Shown here piece after piece: positions 1 to 38,981 of a stretch of 45,007 bases of DNA. The translations under genes were made by a program, and so were the position numbers. This DNA comes from a phage, in assembly GCA_014469095.1 (NCBI GenBank), contig GCA_014469095.1_4330.1; one strand, written 5' to 3'. Below the pieces are notes generated by a model that had not been told where the DNA came from, ran no database searches, and saw nothing but the letters and a program-made list of their open reading frames with translations. The first letter of the stretch is position 1. Each line of letters opens with the position of its first letter.

Positions 1-30
1 AAAAAAAATCCCGGCTGGGTCAGGGCCGGG
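1..30 (-). terminator. Rho-independent terminator closing the leftward lysis operon
   Basis: Inverted repeat CCCGGC/GCCGGG (approx 10-15 and 25-30) followed on the minus strand by a T run (plus 1-8 is A8); lies 66 nt past the endolysin stop. Confidence 0.6.
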
Positions 31-96
31 ATAAAACTGGAGAGCAGAGGGATGGAGCAGGAGGTGATTTAAGTATCGTCGGATTAGTCTTATGTG

Positions 97-585
97 TCAA
101 CCTTTCACCGCGCGCCCGATAGCCTCAGCCTCCTGCCACGGTTTACCGTCGAACAGCGCCAGACGACCGGCGGTACGACGACGCAGTCCAAGTATCGGTT
201 TGCCGTTCTGGTTGATGAACAGCGCCAGCTTAGCCCGCAGAGTCGTGACGTCACCAGAACGCAGTGCCTTACCTGTGCCAGTAGTAGCCGCAATCACACC
301 GGCACCCGCGTTATACACCAGGTCGCACACTGCGTCGAACTGTGCCTGTGTCAATGAATGGTGTGCTGCTGCGTCAACCGCAGCTACGGCCTTAGCCATA
401 TCACGATTCAGTAACAGGAGGCCTTGTCCCGGGGTGATGGTCTTGCCTGGCGTTACGTCTGGCCCATAATGACCGTACCCAATAGTCAGGTACTTCTCAT
501 TTGGCGTAGCACGATACGCAGTTCCGCGGAACCCCTCAAACGCTGCGGTGAAATGCAACCCATTATCTGAAATGTTTCGAGACAC
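97..585 (-). CDS. Endolysin, T4/P22-type lysozyme (glycoside hydrolase family 24-like)
   Basis: ORF track 97..636; contains ISDNGLHFTAAFEGFRGTAYRATPNEKYLTIGYGHY, matching the catalytic Glu / TIGxGH core of phage lysozymes; start placed at GTG 585 (residue 18 of the track ORF) preceded by GGAGGA; TTG 636 is the alternative. Confidence 0.8.
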   Translation of the reverse strand: MSRNISDNGLHFTAAFEGFRGTAYRATPNEKYLTIGYGHYGPDVTPGKTITPGQGLLLLNRDMAKAVAAVDAAAHHSLTQAQFDAVCDLVYNAGAGVIAATTGTGKALRSGDVTTLRAKLALFINQNGKPILGLRRRTAGRLALFDGKPWQEAEAIGRAVKG

Positions 586-835
586 GCTTATGTCCTCCGT
601 ACGACAGCCACGCCTGACGAATCTGGCGCAGCGCAACTAAAGTGATTAATGTCTCAGGTAGCGTAGGTGACATGCTGCCCTGTAACAGGTGGATACATCC
701 GGCGGCGCAGACAATAGCAGTCAGAATATAAAGCACACGCCCGAACAGGCCATCATCTACGCTGGGGTGGTATACGTTAAACAGCGATGTGCTCCCGATT
801 GCGAGCATACCACCAAACCAGAATAACTCATTCAT
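563..835 (-). CDS. Holin/antiholin-like membrane protein, 2 predicted TM helices
   Basis: ORF track 563..928; internal ATG at 835 overlaps the upstream stop; hydrophobic segments LFWFGGMLAIGSTSLF and VLYILTAIVCAAGCIHLL; sits immediately upstream of the endolysin. Confidence 0.6.
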   Translation of the reverse strand: MNELFWFGGMLAIGSTSLFNVYHPSVDDGLFGRVLYILTAIVCAAGCIHLLQGSMSPTLPETLITLVALRQIRQAWLSYGGHKRVSKHFR

Positions 836-1136
836 TACCACCTCCGCGACGTGCGATGTATTCTCCGGCGACAATGCCAGAGAGACGGGAATAAATTGGC
901 ATCCAGAGAATAGCAATGATGAATCCAAGGCCCGCTATTTCGCGTTCACCTGCGATACCGAACCATTGAGCGGCGAGAGGCGCACCGAATACGGCGCACG
1001 CAAAGCCAGTGGCGAGAAAACAGAGAGCATCGACAGGGCCGGTAATAGTGGCTTTGTGTTGCCGTAAGCCTATTACCCCACCAGCTAATGCGGCAGCGAG
1101 AAGCCACCCCGTCACTGTTTCAGTAAATTTATCCAA
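828..1136 (-). CDS. Holin-like membrane protein, about 3 TM helices
   Basis: ORF track; TTG start preceded by GGAGGA; three hydrophobic helices; first gene of the lysis cassette. Confidence 0.6.
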   Translation of the reverse strand: MDKFTETVTGWLLAAALAGGVIGLRQHKATITGPVDALCFLATGFACAVFGAPLAAQWFGIAGEREIAGLGFIIAILWMPIYSRLSGIVAGEYIARRGGGNE

Positions 1137-1211
1137 GATGAATCCTCCAGGTGCGTATTAAGTACGCAGTAACTGGAGGATAGCACGGTTAGGAATTATC
1201 TTAATAACGGT

Positions 1212-1505
1212 TTATTTATGACGCCAGATGTATTGTCGTCTCTGCGGTTTAGTCGGAATATCATCGTATCCGAGCGATTTCCAGTAATTAAATAACCGAT
1301 TAGCGATTGCCGCGCGTTCCTGTGTTTTAAACTCTCCTAGATTCACGGCCTTTCCGTTCTGGAATCCACAGGCGCGGACCGCTTTGCGCCTGGCCTGAAT
1401 CTCGGGGTACAGCGCGTTACGGCGGCGCTTGTGTATACATGTCTTCGCTCTCGGTGACAGCGGCGCAAGGCCGCTTCGTTTCAGGATGTCAGTTGCAAGA
1501 GACAT
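1212..1505 (-). CDS. Hypothetical protein, 97 aa, basic
   Basis: ORF track 1212..1550; ATG at 1505 overlaps the upstream stop (TGATG) and follows GGAGG. Confidence 0.5.
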   Translation of the reverse strand: MSLATDILKRSGLAPLSPRAKTCIHKRRRNALYPEIQARRKAVRACGFQNGKAVNLGEFKTQERAAIANRLFNYWKSLGYDDIPTKPQRRQYIWRHK

Positions 1506-1687
1506 CACTCCACCCCCTCCACATGTGTAACTGACCCACAGTTCGCGCACTCAACGTAATCAGGAAACTGGTCCTTGTATTTCTGTAACTCGGCTTCGAG
1601 TTTCGCGTAATCTTCGTAAAGCACTAACACGCCCTCAACATCAGGAGTAAACCCGAATATCTGGTCGTAGGTATATCTCTGTACCAT
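1505..1687 (-). CDS. Hypothetical protein, 60 aa, C-terminal CxxC
   Basis: ORF track 1505..1759; internal ATG at 1687 preceded by AGGAGA. Confidence 0.45.
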   Translation of the reverse strand: MVQRYTYDQIFGFTPDVEGVLVLYEDYAKLEAELQKYKDQFPDYVECANCGSVTHVEGVE

Positions 1688-1688
1688 G

Positions 1689-1892
1689 TTATTTCTCCTG
1701 TTTACCAAGTCGCTTAGGTGAGCAGATAGCGCGTACCTCTGAATCGTTGGGCTTGTCACCCTGAAACAGAAAGTGCGCGTTCTCTGCGGCGCGTGCCGCT
1801 GACTGGCACGCCTCCATCGAGTAAAACGTTTCTGCTGCCGCTAGTTGCATCTGGCCTGCGGACAGTACCCAGATAAATAAGATGCTGGTCAT
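1689..1892 (-). CDS. Small secreted/periplasmic protein, 67 aa, predicted signal peptide
   Basis: ORF track 1689..1919; ATG at 1892 overlaps the upstream stop (ATGA); N-terminus MTSILFIWVLSAGQMQLAAAE is signal-peptide-like. Confidence 0.45.
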   Translation of the reverse strand: MTSILFIWVLSAGQMQLAAAETFYSMEACQSAARAAENAHFLFQGDKPNDSEVRAICSPKRLGKQEK

Positions 1893-2398
1893 AAGTTTAT
1901 CACCCCGCATTTGGTACAACGCCTACCGTCGGGGTAATAATATTCCCATTCATGCTCGCACTCCTGTGTATCGTTTTTCGGTTTATATTCCTTGTCGTCC
2001 CACTCACGTTTACCACATTTAGAGCAAAGCTCACTACCAGGAACGTTGTTCGTATTGCCTTCGCTGAGAAACAACCCAGGCATAATAATCCAAGAGTGCT
2101 CGCATTCCTGAGTATCTTCCTTACGGCAACCGGATTGCTCGGGCCCATGTTCACCTACTACGTAGCTCTCCCCTTTCGGCAGTGAGCCACCTCGCCCGGT
2201 TGCACGGTTAAAGTCCTCGTTCATTAGTTTTATTGTTTCATGTAACTCCGCCACCAGTGCTGACGCATCTCGTAACTGATTCTTAAGTGACTGCACCTCG
2301 TGCGCCAGGTCTTCACACTGTTGTTTGTATGGGTTGTTAATTACCTGCTGCCGTAGCTGGTCAATAAGGTACTCGAATACTTCGTTTTTACTGTTCAC
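1889..2398 (-). CDS. Coiled-coil protein with two tandem zinc-ribbon-like repeats, 169 aa
   Basis: ORF track; GTG start overlaps the upstream stop; N-terminal heptad-like region, then a repeated TQECEH(S/E)W...C(S/T)KCG unit. Confidence 0.55.
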   Translation of the reverse strand: MNSKNEVFEYLIDQLRQQVINNPYKQQCEDLAHEVQSLKNQLRDASALVAELHETIKLMNEDFNRATGRGGSLPKGESYVVGEHGPEQSGCRKEDTQECEHSWIIMPGLFLSEGNTNNVPGSELCSKCGKREWDDKEYKPKNDTQECEHEWEYYYPDGRRCTKCGVINL

Positions 2399-2568
2399 TC
2401 TGTTTCTCCTTCCACCTCATGTTTCCGTGTAAGGATAATCTCGTCATGAACTACCGTACACTCGTAACCTTCGGCTTCATAATGGGCGATCATATCCTCA
2501 CGCATTTCTGCCGCTAGCTTACCAAGTACCGTATTCTTCCGTAGTATGCATGTATATTGTTTATCCAT
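2395..2568 (-). CDS. Hypothetical protein, 57 aa
   Basis: ORF track 2395..2595; internal ATG at 2568 preceded by AGGAGA. Confidence 0.45.
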   Translation of the reverse strand: MDKQYTCILRKNTVLGKLAAEMREDMIAHYEAEGYECTVVHDEIILTRKHEVEGETE

Positions 2569-2587
2569 CTTCTGTCTCTCCTCTCGT

Positions 2588-2860
2588 TTACTCAACAGCG
2601 CCTGTTATTGTTATAAGCCCAGTGTTACCACGGCGGCGATACTTACGAATCACCGTTTTGAGTCCTTCATTGCTACTCTGATGCCCGAAAGTGATCGGCA
2701 GCTCTTCTCCACCAGACATCCCGAACTCAGTGTCTGTCGGTTTGTCCCGCCACCCCTGAATAAAACCGAAACGGTCACGGGTTATATACCGGTAGTTGTT
2801 AGGGAGGGGCAACTCCAGCCCCTCAAAATCAACGGTCACGGTGTAGCTTCTAAAATTCAT
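2588..2860 (-). CDS. Hypothetical protein, 90 aa
   Basis: ORF track 2588..2866; ATG at 2860. Confidence 0.5.
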   Translation of the reverse strand: MNFRSYTVTVDFEGLELPLPNNYRYITRDRFGFIQGWRDKPTDTEFGMSGGEELPITFGHQSSNEGLKTVIRKYRRRGNTGLITITGAVE

Positions 2861-2999
2861 AGTCAATTACCCCGAACTCGTTAATGATTTGAGCCTTGTA
2901 GAAGTTGCCGTTTGAAGCCAGGTGGTACGCCTGCGCCATAGTCATCTCTCGGTAAGTTGCGGGGCTGTTTTCGAACTCCATAATCATCAAAGTAACCAT
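2850..2999 (-). CDS. Small ORF, 49 aa (MVTLMIMEFENSPATYREMTMAQAYHLASNGNFYKAQIINEFGVIDYEI)
   Basis: Absent from the track (under 60 aa); ATG preceded by AGGAGAGG, directly downstream of the 3031-3059 promoter, overlaps the next gene start. Confidence 0.35.
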   Translation of the reverse strand: MVTLMIMEFENSPATYREMTMAQAYHLASNGNFYKAQIINEFGVIDYEF

Positions 3000-3030
3000 A
3001 TTCTGCCTCTCCTCTCGTTTGTGTAAATGA

Positions 3031-3059
3031 ATAGTATCCTATTCTTCCCCAGCGTGCAA
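3031..3059 (-). promoter_or_regulatory. Sigma70-like promoter, type A (TTGCAC-N17-TACTAT) with dyad core AATAG-N4-CTATT
   Basis: Minus strand reads TTGCACGCTGGGGAAGAATAGGATACTATTCA; near-identical to the elements at 4155, 27560, 37114 and 38953. Confidence 0.55.
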
Positions 3060-3206
3060 GTAAATTTTATTGGTGTTTGTATTATTGCATCTCCTGCAAT
3101 AGTCGCTTCGATTGTTGCGTTTGGTGAAATAGAACAAAAATGAGAAAAATGATACGCTGCTGTGTAGCAGCGTAAGTCACTCAGTAAAATCCCAAACTAT
3201 TGAACA

Positions 3207-3392
3207 TCACACCTCCGGCGGCTCAGGTAACGGCATCCAGTGCGTTATATCACCGTGATATAAACTCTTTGCAGGCCCCCAGTAGCCATCTGAATTAACA
3301 CGCATAACCTCACAGCCAACAAAACAATCAGTTACAAGAACGTATTCATAAGGCTCCGGCATCCGCTCACTACACTTAATCCACTTGCTCAT
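3207..3392 (-). CDS. DUF551-like phage protein, 61 aa
   Basis: ORF track; W-x5-ERMPE...VLV...THWMPLPEPPE pattern recalled for DUF551; a paralog lies at 9249..9506. Confidence 0.5.
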   Translation of the reverse strand: MSKWIKCSERMPEPYEYVLVTDCFVGCEVMRVNSDGYWGPAKSLYHGDITHWMPLPEPPEV

Positions 3393-3550
3393 AAATCGCC
3401 TCTCTTCTCAAATGCGCCAGCCATTACATTCGCACCAGCTTTCCACGCCCGCCACGCGAGACGCGTCTTAACGTTCAGGTACTCTTTCTTCGAACCCTTA
3501 TTAACCGGCAGACCCTCGACGATGGCCCACCGTTCGAATGCTTCTCTCAT
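3389..3550 (-). CDS. Small ORF, 53 aa (MREAFERWAIVEGLPVNKGSKKEYLNVKTRLAWRAWKAGANVMAGAFEKRGDL)
   Basis: Absent from the track; ATG follows GAGGT; stop overlaps the ATG of 3207..3392 (ATGA). Confidence 0.35.
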   Translation of the reverse strand: MREAFERWAIVEGLPVNKGSKKEYLNVKTRLAWRAWKAGANVMAGAFEKRGDL

Positions 3551-3702
3551 ACCAGAACCTCGCATTCATCCCGATACACGAACAATAATGACCCTTTGTA
3601 CTCAATCATAAAACCATAATGGTTGCTGCTGAACGCCAGAAAAACATCACCTACCGAGATACCGAAATCTATAAGCCTGCGGTCAGTTATTCGAATTTTC
3701 AT
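3547..3702 (-). CDS. Small ORF, 51 aa (MKIRITDRRLIDFGISVGDVFLAFSSNHYGFMIEYKGSLLFVYRDECEVLV)
   Basis: Absent from the track; strong SD GAGGGAGG; overlapping start and stop with both neighbours. Confidence 0.4.
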   Translation of the reverse strand: MKIRITDRRLIDFGISVGDVFLAFSSNHYGFMIEYKGSLLFVYRDECEVLV

Positions 3703-3935
3703 TAACGGCAACCTCCCTCAGAGTCGTCGGCACGAGCATCATGATTAGATGCCGTTGTGTATACCTTCGCTTCTGCCTTAGTTACCGGGATTGTGTATCT
3801 TCCTGTCTTAATCCACCAGCCATCCTCACAGGAATCCAGTACATTGAAAACATCTCCCACATTTACGCCTATTTTCTCGAGAGTATCACCATCTTCTTCG
3901 TAGATAACGGTGTTATCTGTAATTATGATTTGCAT
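3702..3935 (-). CDS. Hypothetical protein, 77 aa
   Basis: ORF track 3702..3938; ATG at 3935 overlaps the upstream stop (TGATG). Confidence 0.5.
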   Translation of the reverse strand: MQIIITDNTVIYEEDGDTLEKIGVNVGDVFNVLDSCEDGWWIKTGRYTIPVTKAEAKVYTTASNHDARADDSEGGCR

Positions 3936-4120
3936 CACTTCACCCCTTTGAATTTAAAATTGTTGCCGATGAGTGTTAAATTATCTCTGAAAGCGTAACC
4001 ATGTTTCTTTCGTACAAGACCCCATACGTCTACAGCGGTACTATATTCATCCTCATTCTGGGTAACTATTACGTACTGTCCGCCGCGTTTTGTTTTAACC
4101 AACTGACCCTTCTTAAACAT
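3935..4120 (-). CDS. Hypothetical basic protein, 61 aa
   Basis: ORF track 3935..4147; ATG at 4120; first gene downstream of the 4155-4183 promoter. Confidence 0.5.
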   Translation of the reverse strand: MFKKGQLVKTKRGGQYVIVTQNEDEYSTAVDVWGLVRKKHGYAFRDNLTLIGNNFKFKGVK

Positions 4121-4154
4121 AACCCTCACCCCTCTGTCTTGTTTCAATAAGTGA

Positions 4155-4183
4155 ATAGTATCCTATTATGTTGGGGTGTGCAA
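4155..4183 (-). promoter_or_regulatory. Sigma70-like promoter, type A (TTGCAC-N17-TACTAT)
   Basis: Minus strand reads TTGCACACCCCAACATAATAGGATACTATTCAC; heads the leftward small-gene block. Confidence 0.6.
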
Positions 4184-4242
4184 GAGAATAGTTACGTTGC
4201 CGTTGTGATTCTTTCGTTTCTTAAAAGAGTACGCAACGCAGT

Positions 4243-4262
4243 GGGTGGGCGTTAGCCCACCC
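4243..4262. other. GC-rich perfect hairpin in the 0.4 kb non-coding spacer
   Basis: GGGTGGGC-GTTA-GCCCACCC, 8-bp stem, no adjacent T run; function unknown. Confidence 0.4.
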
Positions 4263-4558
4263 CAGCGGAGTGAAGTACTCTCTACCTCGCCCACGGCAAC
4301 TATAGAAACTTTTAATTATCAGATACTTAAGAGATATGCTGCCGATGAGAATAGAGCTTGCCCAGGGCAACCGGAGATACTTAGAAAAGAAAGTTACGGT
4401 AATTTTTATGTTCAGTAATCTGCCGCTTAACACTTCGCTTGCGCTTTGGCGCAGCTGCGTTTCAAGCGGGTATTACAAGGTGAACAAGAATCAAAGTAAC
4501 TAAGATATAGAAGCACCTTAAACGAAGATTTTCATAATGTCAATAGGTGTGATTATGT

Positions 4559-4587
4559 TTGATTTCCCATTATTCGCAATGTATACT
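4559..4587 (+). promoter_or_regulatory. Sigma70-like promoter of the rightward early operon
   Basis: TTGATT-N17-TATACT about 30 nt upstream of the ATG at 4620; lacks the dyad core of the other promoters. Confidence 0.5.
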
Positions 4588-4619
4588 TGGTTTCGTTAAC
4601 TGATAATGAGGGTTTGAGA

Positions 4620-4772
4620 ATGGTTACTTTGACAGAAGAACAGTTGAAAGAGTTGCTGATAGAAGCGTGGTTTAACGGGCATAACGAGAGCAGATACTGC
4701 CCTAATAAATACGGCACAGCTACAGTGTTCGCACGGGAAACAATTAAGGAGATTAAAGATGACGCAGAATGA
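4620..4772 (+). CDS. Hypothetical protein, 50 aa
   Basis: ORF track 4587..4772; the TTG at 4587 lies inside the predicted -10, so the ATG at 4620 (SD GAGGG) is preferred. Confidence 0.45.
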   Translation: MVTLTEEQLKELLIEAWFNGHNESRYCPNKYGTATVFARETIKEIKDDAE

Positions 4773-4929
4773 AGTAGCTGAGCGTATCGGGGTTACTCGT
4801 CGCACATTGAATAACTGGTTAAAGAATGGGAAATTCCCGGATTGCTGTATCCGCATTATGGGTCGCCGTCAGCCAGGTACGTTCGACCCGGAGAAAGTGG
4901 AAGCGTGGATTAAGGAGAACGTAAAATGA
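4759..4929 (+). CDS. AlpA/excisionase-like HTH DNA-binding protein, 56 aa
   Basis: Not in track; MTQNEVAERIGVTRRTLNNWLKNGKFP... has the layout of AlpA-type HTH regulators; SD AGGAGA; stop overlaps the next ATG. Confidence 0.5.
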   Translation: MTQNEVAERIGVTRRTLNNWLKNGKFPDCCIRIMGRRQPGTFDPEKVEAWIKENVK

Positions 4930-5176: not shown

Positions 5177-7504
5177 GTGAACGCCGAGGCTAAATTACTT
5201 GCTGAAGGAATATACAATATGTCCGATGTAATTTTATCCTACTCGTGGTCCCGTCGCAACGCGCGGGCCGAGAAAAAGGATATAAACGTCAGAACCACAC
5301 ACACGGCAACACTGGACGACCTGAAAGAGTTAATCCAGCCGCTCGATGCTGTTCGTGACGGGATTAACCCGAAGACCGCCCCCGGATATATCACTGCTGC
5401 GTGCGACTCTACGCACGGCACCGTAAAAGACCCGGAAACCGGAGACTTTAAGCAAGCGCGTAAAGGCTTCTTCTACCGCTGCGACGCGTCTGTGACCAAA
5501 TCGTCGCTGGCATATCTGGACTTCGACAGCGCGACGCCGGAAGAGTATCAGGAAGCTGTGCGTCTGGTTAAGCGCAGCCGCCGGGCTATGTGTCTCTATA
5601 CCACGGCATCACATACCGATAAGTCTCCGCGCTTTCGCGTCGTCATGCCGCTGGCCCGTCCGGTTGAAGGTGGGGGCATCATCCGCGTTCGCCACGGATT
5701 GCTTGAGCACTTCTTCAAAGGCATGGGTGCCGACCGCAGCGGGTTCACTCTTTCGCAACCGATGTACCTGCCGCCGGTCGGCTCTCAGGTTATCTGGTCG
5801 CGCCGCAACGACCTGATTGACCCGGACGAGTTACTGGAAGGCATCCCGGATTACGAGGTGAGCAGCGCATCGGATTACCAGATACCGGAAGAACTGCGCA
5901 CCACGTTTACCGACGCATTCGAGGCACTGGCGTTCGAGTACGGTGGCGTCATGACGCCCCGCGGTCTGAAAATGCCTGCCACGCCAGAACATGCAGAAAA
6001 CTACAGCGACCCGACGCCACGCCCGGACGACTTCCTGCTGTGTTTCCCGCGTGAAGGGTACGAAGCACCTAACGTAACCATGATTCACGACACCGACATT
6101 ACGGCAACCGAAGGCATGTCACCGAAAGATGTGTGGAAGTATGCGTGCGATGCGACCGGGCTGCCGTTCAGTGAAGTCGCTGAGGCAATTGGCTGGGGCG
6201 CGCGGGAGTCCGTTTCATGCAGCCTGGACGACCTGGAAGACGACGAGGACTCAGAAGAGGACGAGTTACCAGAACCGGTAAAGGCTGATTTCGTCGTTGA
6301 GGGGTACATGCCGTCGGATTGTATCTGGGATATTGTCGGGGAATCCGGCACGTACAAATCATTCTATACGCTGGGGATGATGTACCTGAGCGCCGCCGGG
6401 TACCGGTTTGCGGGGGCTGACACCCAACGTTGCCACCATTTCTATATTGACGGCGAGGGTGGTGCAGCTACACGAACACGTATTGATGCACTCGCGGCTA
6501 AATATGGCGAGGAAGGTAAAGATTATGTACATGTCATCGATATGGGCGAAATACTCGCTACGCATGGTGATAAAAAAATTCCAGCTCTAATCCGCAGGAT
6601 GCGCGAAACCGCAGGGGATGAACCTATTGGCATGGTTGCCTTCGACACCCTTAACCAGACGCTGGCCCTGACGATTGATAAGTTCGACGAGAACAGTTCA
6701 TCAACGGCAATCGGTATGGGTAAAGTTATCGCCATCCTGAAAGAAGTGCGCGATGCAACTAAAGCCGCTGTCGGTGTCGTTCACCATACTCCGAAGGGCG
6801 GAAAGAAAGCCCGCGGCAGTGGAGCATTGTATGCGGGTGTCGACGTGGAACTGACAATCGAACGCGCTACCGACCGTCAGATAAACGTATACCACTCTAA
6901 ATTTAAGCACGGTCCGCAACAGAAGACGGTTGGCATGGTACTGGAGTCTGTACAGTTCCGTGAAGCACCGCCGCCGAAAGAGTACCGCGCGGTTGAGTTC
7001 CTCGGTAGCACAGAGGAATACGGCACAATAGTAAACCTCGACCTGCCTGAGCCGCACAAGGCGCTTGTATTGATGCCGTGGGGCTTCGAGCCATTCAAGA
7101 CCGACGAGGAGAAAGAGAGGGAAGAAGGGTTAACTAACGAAGGTAAACAAAATGTACGTAAAACCATAGAGAACGCCGTCAACAGTTCCGAGGCCACGAT
7201 ACTCGCGGCGTTTGAACTGGCGGAGGGGACCTACAACGGCAACGAGGGCATCACGGTATCCGCAGCGAATAAGCTCGCGCAGTCTGACCCCAACGCAAAG
7301 GCGTTTAACTCCAAAGAAGCCATAGAACGCGGGAAGATTAAGAAAATGGTTGAGGCTGGGTATCTTGTTCCGGGTACTGACGAAAACAATCAGATAATCC
7401 CAGGCCGTTACAGACTGAACACCATGATAACAGATAACAAGATTCCGAAGACAATATACGAGCCGAATGAAATGCTGACAGTGACCGAGGAGGATTTGGA
7501 ATGA
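5177..7504 (+). CDS. Putative DNA primase/helicase (primase-like N-terminal region plus RecA-like NTPase core)
   Basis: ORF track (GTG 5177; ATG 5219 with SD GAAGGA is the alternative); N-terminal LDFD and SHTD motifs suggest an archaeo-eukaryotic-type primase; C-terminal GESGTYKS, AFDTL and VVHHTPKG resemble RepA/DnaB-like cores, though the P-loop is non-canonical. Confidence 0.55.
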   Translation: MNAEAKLLAEGIYNMSDVILSYSWSRRNARAEKKDINVRTTHTATLDDLKELIQPLDAVRDGINPKTAPGYITAACDSTHGTVKDPETGDFKQARKGFFYRCDASVTKSSLAYLDFDSATPEEYQEAVRLVKRSRRAMCLYTTASHTDKSPRFRVVMPLARPVEGGGIIRVRHGLLEHFFKGMGADRSGFTLSQPMYLPPVGSQVIWSRRNDLIDPDELLEGIPDYEVSSASDYQIPEELRTTFTDAFEALAFEYGGVMTPRGLKMPATPEHAENYSDPTPRPDDFLLCFPREGYEAPNVTMIHDTDITATEGMSPKDVWKYACDATGLPFSEVAEAIGWGARESVSCSLDDLEDDEDSEEDELPEPVKADFVVEGYMPSDCIWDIVGESGTYKSFYTLGMMYLSAAGYRFAGADTQRCHHFYIDGEGGAATRTRIDALAAKYGEEGKDYVHVIDMGEILATHGDKKIPALIRRMRETAGDEPIGMVAFDTLNQTLALTIDKFDENSSSTAIGMGKVIAILKEVRDATKAAVGVVHHTPKGGKKARGSGALYAGVDVELTIERATDRQINVYHSKFKHGPQQKTVGMVLESVQFREAPPPKEYRAVEFLGSTEEYGTIVNLDLPEPHKALVLMPWGFEPFKTDEEKEREEGLTNEGKQNVRKTIENAVNSSEATILAAFELAEGTYNGNEGITVSAANKLAQSDPNAKAFNSKEAIERGKIKKMVEAGYLVPGTDENNQIIPGRYRLNTMITDNKIPKTIYEPNEMLTVTEEDLE

Positions 7505-27035: not shown

Positions 27036-27452
27036 CTACTTTTCCTGTAGCTGGTGCAGTTGTTCGTTATGAAACACAACAACAAGTTCCGCGAGTCGTT
27101 TATATTGCGTCAGGAGTGTGTTCAGATTCTCTTTATTGAATTCGTCGTCAAGGCTCCACCCGTTAACCAATTCAATCGCTAACTGACGGTTAAGGTCCGT
27201 CGCCGCGTCTTCCATCTTCAGGTTGTATTCAGAGAAATCTTTCATCTCTTCGCACTTATCACGAAGCGGTTTTAATTTCCCTAATACTGCCCGGTATGCA
27301 AGGGTGAACGCGCGCATAGCCTTAACGGCAACGTCCGCCTCAGGAGAAACAACATTAAGCCATTCCCCGGAATCAGTACCGTCTTTTAGCGGTATCGGCA
27401 TACGTGCGCCCTTTTCGGCTTCCGCTTCGTAATAAAAATCAGAAAGTTTCAT
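27036..27452 (-). CDS. Tail assembly chaperone (lambda G-like)
   Basis: ORF track; acidic 138-aa protein between the major tail region and the tape measure. Confidence 0.55.
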   Translation of the reverse strand: MKLSDFYYEAEAEKGARMPIPLKDGTDSGEWLNVVSPEADVAVKAMRAFTLAYRAVLGKLKPLRDKCEEMKDFSEYNLKMEDAATDLNRQLAIELVNGWSLDDEFNKENLNTLLTQYKRLAELVVVFHNEQLHQLQEK

Positions 27453-27559
27453 TCTTTAATCCTTTGGTTAAGAGGTTACTGGTTAAAGGAAATGCGCCAG
27501 ACGGGAACCACCCGCTTTTCGTGTGCGACACTAGGCGCAAAATTATTCTAGCACACTAC

Positions 27560-27588
27560 TTGCACACCCCAATATAATAGCGTACTAT
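27560..27588 (+). promoter_or_regulatory. Sigma70-like promoter, type A (TTGCAC-N17-TACTAT) driving the rightward cassette
   Basis: TTGCAC-ACCCCAATATAATAGCG-TACTAT-TCAC. Confidence 0.6.
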
Positions 27589-37113: not shown

Positions 37114-37142
37114 TTGCACACCCCAATATAATAGGGTACTAT
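37114..37142 (+). promoter_or_regulatory. Sigma70-like promoter, type A (TTGCAC-N17-TACTAT)
   Basis: TTGCAC-ACCCCAATATAATAGGG-TACTAT-TCAG, then SD GCAGGAGGTG. Confidence 0.65.
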
Positions 37143-38952: not shown

Positions 38953-38981
38953 TTGCAGACACCAACATAATAGGGTACTAT
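38953..38981 (+). promoter_or_regulatory. Sigma70-like promoter, type A (TTGCAG-N17-TACTAT)
   Basis: TTGCAG-ACACCAACATAATAGGG-TACTAT-TCAT. Confidence 0.6.

Follow-up and report, generated by a model that had tools for sequence, protein, structure and literature searches.

Cis-acting structured leaders lying between an early or late promoter and the first terminator are known from phage lambda (the pR'-tR' '6S' leader) and from HK022 (the put RNAs). In the satellite phage P4, the leader upstream of a replication system of the primase-helicase type holds a structured RNA, CI, together with complementary internal repeats. At the primary origin of T7, promoters are followed by AT-rich DNA, and the transcript serves as the primer. 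The ssoA elements (single-strand origins) of rolling-circle plasmids serve replicons of single-stranded DNA, as do the minus-strand origins of filamentous phages.

The spacer considered here is like the lambda, HK022 and P4 examples in its layout alone; homology to them was not found. It lies in a 45-kb stretch of phage DNA (GenBank assembly GCA_014469095.1), which was analysed as a whole and is called the window below. Of the 381 phage records that match a 3-kb region around the spacer, most belong to Escherichia Kagunavirus or Salmonella Jerseyvirus, both of the subfamily Guernseyvirinae. The window is a Kagunavirus-type siphophage, and its gene map agrees with this subfamily. Phages of the subfamily, Jersey-like ones from Salmonella and K1G-like ones from E. 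coli, belong to those isolated most frequently for therapy and food biocontrol.

The spacer occupies positions 4123–4619 (~0.5 kb), between a leftward early block and a rightward replication module. An earlier note on this DNA had described a gene-free stretch at 4184–4619; its right end holds, and its left end has to be moved to 4123, the first leftward gene opening with the ATG at 4122–4120. The features of the locus and of the surrounding genes are as follows.

1–4122, minus strand: small leftward genes (gene map).
4181→4153, minus strand: leftward type-A promoter TTGCAC-17-TACTAT, one of four copies, with a palindromic invariant spacer.
4184–4213, no strand assigned: conserved left block GAGAATAGTTACGTTGCCGTTGTGATTCTT, kept across genera wherever the left module is present.
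4236–4508, minus strand: putative leftward non-coding transcript or leader of ~270 nt, beginning at the predicted start and reaching the GC hairpin, both ends being inferred.
4243–4262, minus strand: GC hairpin of 8 bp with a 4-nt loop, the positional equivalent of a minus-strand terminator in relatives.
4317–4391, minus strand: near-invariant domain 2 of 75 nt, with both AGATACTTA repeats and a small palindrome TTGCCcagGGCAA (4358–4370).
4392–4500, minus strand: rod-like hairpin of ~110 nt, recognized by folds, a covariance model and covariation.
4543→4515, minus strand: leftward sigma-70 promoter P_L2, with -35 TTGACA (4543→4538), a 17-nt spacer and -10 TAAGGT (4520→4515).
4559–4587, plus strand: rightward early promoter TTGATT-17-TATACT, found by scan and conserved.
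4620–4772, plus strand: 50-aa ORF (phrog_20928), the first ORF of the rightward replication module.
4759–4929, plus strand: HTH_17 protein with an alpA-like HTH, replication module.
Between the HTH_17 and helicase-primase genes, plus strand: 77-aa ORF, replication module.
5177–7504, plus strand: helicase-primase of 775 aa, replication module.
Downstream of the helicase-primase, plus strand: exonuclease, then family-A DNA polymerase, then helicase, replication module.
Minus strand of the window: tail genes (gene map).
39.3–40.8 kb: portal gene (protein scan, with no terminase gene located).

In most relatives nothing separates the leader from the HTH gene. In the window the 50-aa ORF comes between the two, after the conserved promoter and leader, and it therefore has the look of a small gene that was inserted precisely at the start codon.

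The spacer alone is matched by 447 phage records and represents a conserved non-coding unit, not junk. About 350 Jerseyviruses match only window positions 4320–4622, at ~72% identity, and the match ends at the first ATG. Among the aligned versions of the spacer (19, later 36 distinct ones), the right core (4317–4622) is found in all Jerseyviruses and most Kagunaviruses. Over these ~300 nt, Kagunavirus and Jerseyvirus are 70–74% identical, and the adjacent HTH and helicase-primase DNA of the same genus pair lies below the core, at 66–67%. The length stays within 436–448 nt. The left module (~4197–4316), which carries the GC hairpin, occurs in several unrelated versions; together with its hairpin it is absent from several viable Jerseyviruses, and its deletion there indicates that it is dispensable. 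K1G and K1H have only the left 200 nt in common with the spacer. The right modules of K1G and Snoke are non-homologous and re-use a few short motifs. A search of plasmids for a homologue of the spacer found none.

These two alleles occupy the right half of the spacer (K1G allele, L016 1700–1990; Snoke allele, L017 1600–1970). Unrelated in sequence, they have the same layout, which consists of back-to-back promoters, ~200–270 nt of non-coding DNA and a GC hairpin.

The left block at 4184–4213 lies just upstream of the type-A -35 hexamer and carries one exact copy of a genome-wide word, GTTGCCGTTG. It also takes part in a partial internal duplication, in which 4189–4213 and 4392–4410 are each complementary to 4486–4502. 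The features listed in the earlier note fall into blocks conserved across two genera, and its repeats belong to conserved helices and to this duplication, which takes them beyond chance.

The core has no coding character. In none of the 34 distinct cores (0/34) does one of the six reading frames stay open, the variable columns are distributed over codon positions as 33/38/38 without 3-periodicity, and the indels between the genera measure 1, 1, 8, 9 and 6 nt. A plus-strand ORF family (24 loci, annotated as a CDS in BUCT789) was considered and ruled out by stops in all frames, the lack of 3-periodicity and frame-shifting indels; for the same reasons, the ORFs annotated here in some records are spurious.

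Nor was a known RNA class recognized in the spacer. Rfam 15 gave no match at gathering thresholds, and at E-values up to 10 only two chance-level matches were obtained (17.7 bits against 70 and 16.3 against 50). The tRNA/tmRNA scan was negative. When the element was compared with the rest of the genome in search of trans targets, no match of at least 13 nt was found, and the matches of 11–12 nt are explained by the genome-wide word. No description of the spacer element was found in the literature on transcription, origins or sRNAs in these phages, and the main text of the RNA-seq paper on the Kagunavirus K1B4 makes no mention of intergenic, non-coding or antisense transcripts (PMC12645636). 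The element is most likely a phage-encoded structured non-coding RNA or leader that belongs to no Rfam family and is undescribed in the searchable literature.

The sole Rfam match at gathering level in the window is the int-alpA RNA motif (RF02996) at 27477–27541 on the minus strand (36.6 bits; gathering threshold 35.8). The motif falls within the 5' leader of the minus-strand gene for a tail assembly chaperone (27036–27452), in a second divergent junction that also has a type-A promoter (27560), and not beside the alpA-like HTH gene at 4759–4929.

No 8-mer of the genome is more over-represented than the genome-wide word GTTGCCGT, which also has an extended form GTTGCCGTTG; it is present 29 times where 2.2–3.6 copies are expected (z 13–18). 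With at most one mismatch, 39 sites are found against 3.7 expected. They are spread over the three frames and over coding as well as template strands, and 28 of the 39 are on the plus strand irrespective of gene direction; the excess is common to Jerseyvirus and Kagunavirus relatives. In and near the spacer, sites are located at 3703(-), 3748(+), 3962(+), 4196(+) and 4291(-). A phage DNA enzyme could use the word for binding or priming, or the word could be an oriented signal of the Chi kind; the literature yielded nothing on it. Of the E. coli Chi sequence GCTGGTGG, eight copies are present against 1.1 expected (~7-fold), at 1078, 3813, 14718, 22102, 26354, 36155, 38403 and 40437. Seven of the eight are on the minus strand, a bias opposite to that of GTTGCCGT, which suggests a genome-wide polarity, for example through protection against RecBCD entry from a single end, or through directional rolling-circle replication or packaging. 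Next in over-representation among the 8-mers is GAGTTCGA/TCGAACTC, with 12 copies against 1.2–2.4 expected.

The spacer contains three promoters. The leftward type-A promoter named in the earlier note is present at 4181→4153, and its motif occurs four times in the window against 0 expected (4153–4181, 27560–27588, 37114–37142 and 38953–38981). The four copies have a near-invariant 17-nt spacer, ACCCCAAYATAATAGGGTAC, containing a palindrome, which suggests that a phage regulator binds inside the promoter. In the four-copy alignment, the motif is conserved only in the orientation that is leftward at 4181, and the mirror position of the -35 hexamer is not conserved. The copy at 27560 reads TTGCAC-17-TACTAT toward plus-strand genes. 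Hence the copy at 4181→4153 fires leftward only, and a bidirectional type-A promoter feeding a plus-strand RNA is ruled out. It drives the leftward gene block, the first ATG of which is at 4122. In phage fBC-Eco01 the same motif is reported as a 7-copy repeat, assigned in the corresponding paper to a 'phage RNA polymerase' (PMC9825357). Among the 18 window proteins scanned, none has a likeness to RNA polymerase.

The second leftward promoter, P_L2, was absent from the list in the earlier note, which also did not include the ~110-nt rod or the conservation across genera; it is these three that make up the real content of the spacer. Its -35 hexamer agrees with the consensus in 6/6 positions and its -10 hexamer, TAAGGT, in 3/6 (T-12, A-11 and T-7 are kept), 9/12 in total; the promoter scan requires at least 4/6 per hexamer, so P_L2 was not called. 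The hexamers and their 17±1 spacing are conserved while the spacer sequence diverges (TTATGAAAATCTTCGTT in Kagunavirus vs TTTTCATTTTTTTCGTG in Jerseyvirus). Equivalents are found at the same place in non-homologous alleles, TTGACA-16-TAAAAT in K1G and TTGACT-17-TAAGCT in Snoke, and P_L2 is thus kept in three non-homologous spacer alleles. The second search pattern used for collecting loci included part of the P_L2 block; the loci obtained by BLAST or by the first pattern alone show the same invariance of this block. Transcription from P_L2 is predicted to start near 4508, 8 nt before helix P1 of the rod.

The rightward early promoter at 4559–4587, also recognized in the earlier note, stands back to back with P_L2, with 15 bp between their -35 hexamers. 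Downstream of it come a short leader, a Shine-Dalgarno sequence GAGGG and the ATG at 4620, and the block TTGATTTCCCATT at this promoter is invariant across the aligned versions. Upstream of the core, in the left module, promoter scans that included the relatives revealed no conserved plus-strand promoter.

The rod consists of P1 (AGTTAC/GTAACT), P2, P3 (TGTTCA/TGAACA), a conserved 4-nt bulge (AAGG on the plus strand, CCUU on the minus strand), P4 (GTAAn/nTTAC) and a variable apical stem, P5. Its architecture is identical in both genera when each sequence is folded separately. The covariance model of the rod, R1, gives one match per locus at 36 loci, with 68–114 bits, and no match in the K1G and Snoke modules. 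In the model-fitted alignment, 84% of the cells pair, against 31–47% with the partners slid, and nine pairs vary on both sides; the covariation score is 0.174 compared with 0.102 in shuffles, and none of 500 shuffles reaches 0.174. A purely sequence-based alignment has 99% of the P1–P4 cells paired (30–50% slid). Compensatory changes are found in P2 (CG/UA), in P4 (GC/AU/UA and AU/GU/GC) and in six P5 pairs. The Jerseyvirus apical stem is placed out of register by RNAalifold on the MAFFT alignment and also by the covariance-model alignment, and P5 was therefore analysed segment by segment. Its 22 distinct versions have 53–98% mutual identity, and all 22 form hairpins of 10–17 pairs. The element thus combines the compensatory substitutions of a structured non-coding RNA with the absence of a conserved reading frame.

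In domain 2, a candidate minus-strand helix has 98.7% of its cells paired, and all of its five variable pairs change via G·U, which is valid on the minus strand only. Double-sided covariation was not detected in this helix, and the proposed structure of domain 2 is tentative. The direct repeats AGATACTTA are exact at 4321 and 4375, 54 nt apart, as had been noticed earlier; the window contains three copies against 0.38 expected, a number reached in none of 100 shuffles. The AGTTACG repeats are likewise real and start at 4190 and 4392. The copy at 4392 is one arm of P1, and the copy at 4190 lies in the partial duplicate of that arm; the short repeats of the earlier note are pieces of conserved helices.

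The GC hairpin was also described correctly: it is a perfect 8-bp stem (GGGTGGGC/GCCCACCC at 4243–4250/4255–4262) with a 4-nt loop and without a T run on either strand (plus tail CAGCGGAGTG, minus tail ACTGCGTTGC). Compared with an intrinsic terminator, it has the GC-rich stem (7 G-C of 8 bp) and lacks the U tract, and for this reason it is only the positional equivalent of a terminator. A GC hairpin stands to the left of the core in 38/38 spacers, built from one of five unrelated stems. In 23 of the 38, from both genera, the minus-strand tail is TTTAGTTACC and the hairpin scores as a minus-strand terminator. Across all 38 the tails are T-richer on the minus strand, and the plus-strand tails are never T-rich. 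The majority type shows a compensatory change (GGGCAGGC/GCCTGCCC vs GGGCAGGT/ACCTGCCC), and one pair of the hairpin in locus L003 is G·U on the minus strand only. The version without a U tract is found in the window, in K1G and in two metagenomic relatives.

As for the strand, the evidence leans toward the minus strand. Against dinucleotide shuffles, folding of the whole putative transcript gives z-scores of -4.1 for the window, -4.5 for L001 and -3.7 for L002 on the minus strand, compared with -3.0 for the plus strand of the window. P5 is more stable on the minus strand in 19 of 22 segments, the one-sided changes in P4 and in the candidate domain-2 helix give G·U on the minus strand only, the tails of the GC hairpins are of the terminator type on this strand, and the only promoter pointing into the element, P_L2, reads this strand. 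The rod taken separately is close to neutral: it has 26 G·U cells on the minus and 35 on the plus strand, a strand call from G·U versus A·C counts was dropped as neutral, and in 22 of 32 sequences it is the minus strand that folds more stably, by just ~1 kcal/mol. The strand evidence not being uniform, a leftward RNA is taken as the best-supported reading rather than as a result. That the plus strand is the functional one, or that both strands are transcribed as a sense/antisense pair, is quite improbable. It would agree with the better plus-strand folding of the K1G and Snoke alleles (z -4.05 vs -2.04 and -2.16 vs -0.16, respectively), with a second, allele-specific GC hairpin in the K1G right module that has the T-rich tail TTTAAGT on the plus strand, with the slight excess of rod G·U cells there, and with the purine-rich character of the plus strand, which has GGA and ARN-like runs. 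It is opposed by the lack of a conserved plus-strand promoter upstream of the core, the unidirectional type-A promoter, the absence of T-rich plus tails from the left-module hairpins of all 38 spacers, and the Jerseyvirus plus-strand folds, which abandon the rod.

The reading preferred here, for which the chance is put at slightly less than even, is that the spacer element is an early leftward structured non-coding RNA or gating leader of ~190–270 nt. The spacer would be an early control region carrying a non-coding transcription unit, with two sigma-70 (host-type) promoters back to back at 4515–4587. The rightward promoter would serve the HTH protein and the replication genes. P_L2 would fire early, and an RNA beginning near 4508 would fold at once into the ~110-nt rod (4500→4392), run on through the near-invariant 75-nt domain 2 (4391→4317) and then reach the GC hairpin (4262→4243). 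In most relatives the hairpin is followed by UUUAGUU, which should release a discrete RNA of ~270 nt. In the window the hairpin has no U tract, so that more transcripts probably pass the type-A promoter into the leftward small genes. The hairpin and terminator could in this way gate the early transcription entering the leftward genes; once released, the RNA may have a function in trans as well. The sequences themselves show the conservation, the lack of coding character, the covariation of the hairpin, and the promoter and terminator consensus together with its conservation. It is from these features of the locus that we infer the transcription of the element, its strand, the end of the RNA and its regulatory target.

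The earlier note had left a choice between a replication origin, a packaging site and a small RNA. The small RNA is the best supported of the three: a sigma-70 promoter points into the element, the structure covaries, the DNA is non-coding, and in most relatives a terminator-type hairpin lies on the same strand. For the origin the evidence decides neither way, and the packaging site is unlikely. A leftward RNA is favoured by a core that is more conserved than the neighbouring HTH and helicase-primase DNA and recurs in 447 records, by a rod architecture common to both genera with 22 apical stems that all pair, by the P_L2 hexamers kept despite spacer divergence and also in the K1G and Snoke alleles, and by the 23/38 hairpins that score as minus-strand terminators. 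Several facts speak against it: the strand test on the rod is neutral, the plus strand gives the better folds in the K1G and Snoke alleles, the -10 hexamer of P_L2 has only 3/6 consensus positions, the window hairpin has no U tract, and several viable Jerseyviruses lack the left module along with its hairpin. An origin acting at the DNA level would be equally compatible with conserved hairpins and short repeats beside replication genes.

Such an origin is an unlikely explanation of the spacer. The helicase-primase or the HTH protein would be loaded here, and the divergent promoters would activate or prime initiation, in the manner of lambda ori or of the primary origin of T7. In this view proteins would bind at the short repeats, and the rod would work as a DNA hairpin, either extruded or single-stranded. 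The spacer does lie directly upstream of the genes for HTH_17, helicase-primase, exonuclease, family-A polymerase and helicase, and it contains AT-rich stretches. The rod is without clear strand preference, and the alleles disagree on the strand, as expected for a hairpin at the DNA level. The motif AG[AT]TA[CT], defined post hoc, occurs seven times in 319 nt against 2.7 per kb genome-wide (~8-fold). The cumulative GC-skew minimum near 4 kb would also fit, but it coincides with the switch in transcription direction and is therefore uninformative on the origin. Signals of known initiator systems are missing: the DnaA box TTWTNCACA has 0 copies in 4100–4650 (three in the window against 3.1 expected), no regular iteron spacing is seen in the spacer, and an iteron cluster of GTTGCCGT is not significant, as five sites in 700 nt are reached by 647 of 2000 random placements. 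The imperfect rod with its conserved bulges would make a poor cruciform, and there is no plasmid homologue. The window is like T7 in its replisome set (helicase-primase, family-A polymerase) and in having promoters at the head of the replication module; it is unlike the T7 primary origin in that the spacer promoters are of the host sigma-70 type and the element is a structured hairpin, not simply AT-rich. With ssoA and the filamentous minus-strand origins, which work on one strand, the element has in common an imperfect rod of ~100–150 nt, conserved unpaired motifs and compensatory stem changes, but the window belongs to a dsDNA phage with its own primase, and no sequence similarity was found.

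Control purely at the DNA level, by promoters with operator or activator sites (e.g., for the HTH_17 protein) and hairpins without RNA function, is about as doubtful as an origin. Three promoters are packed into 430 nt, domain 2 has very high primary-sequence conservation with its AGATACTTA direct repeats 54 nt apart, the left block is placed immediately upstream of the type-A -35, and a DNA-binding protein is encoded immediately downstream of the spacer, its gene being an early one in phage K1B4 (PMC12645636). Operators leave unexplained the compensatory changes in P2, P4 and P5, the 22 different apical stems that keep pairing, and the GC hairpin that stays at a fixed position with five unrelated sequences. 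A packaging (pac) site, finally, is highly improbable. The region is non-coding and has repeats, and several GenBank records start or end beside it, which reflects record conventions and not mapped termini. Terminase genes usually adjoin the portal gene, and pac sites are normally located in or beside the small terminase gene; here the portal gene is at 39.3–40.8 kb, with the terminase genes not located, the spacer sits between early and replication genes, and neither a terminase-type repeat array nor anything else pac-like is present in it.

Taken as a leftward leader RNA, the element can be compared with the lambda 6S and HK022 put leaders. It is like them in the succession of a promoter for the host RNA polymerase, a structured non-coding RNA, a terminator-type hairpin and then phage genes, and in stem sequences that vary while the pairing persists. 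It is unlike them in lacking sequence or Rfam similarity, in showing no sign of antitermination and in having the type-A promoter between the hairpin and the genes; in addition, it would form one long rod and a second domain, whereas put consists of two short stem-loops. The complementarity of 4486–4502 to both 4392–4410 and 4189–4213 may be seen as analogous to the internal repeats of the P4 CI leader. The P4 leader, however, is on the transcript of the replication genes, whereas the RNA from the spacer would run away from them, and homology was not detected.

A bolder version of this reading, in which the rod and domain 2 represent a new class of cis-acting phage leader RNA, is on balance improbable. 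Such a leader, made from an early host-type promoter, would gate or reprogram RNA polymerase or prime DNA synthesis. It could work by put-like antitermination, by P4-like RNA-mediated termination, or as a primer at a transcription-dependent origin.

In the Guernseyvirinae genomes, hundreds of which are deposited, this region is left blank or carries spurious small ORFs. Annotators gain a feature that can be marked, a non-coding element conserved as strongly as essential replication genes, and for genome engineering the spacer is probably unsafe for deletion or insertion. The element also offers a target of ~270 nt for studying the start of the early programme or of replication in these phages. 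If the new leader class is real, the leader would link the early transcription of Guernseyvirinae phages to the onset of their replication, and the interchangeable alleles (window, K1G and Snoke types) would be its specificity variants.
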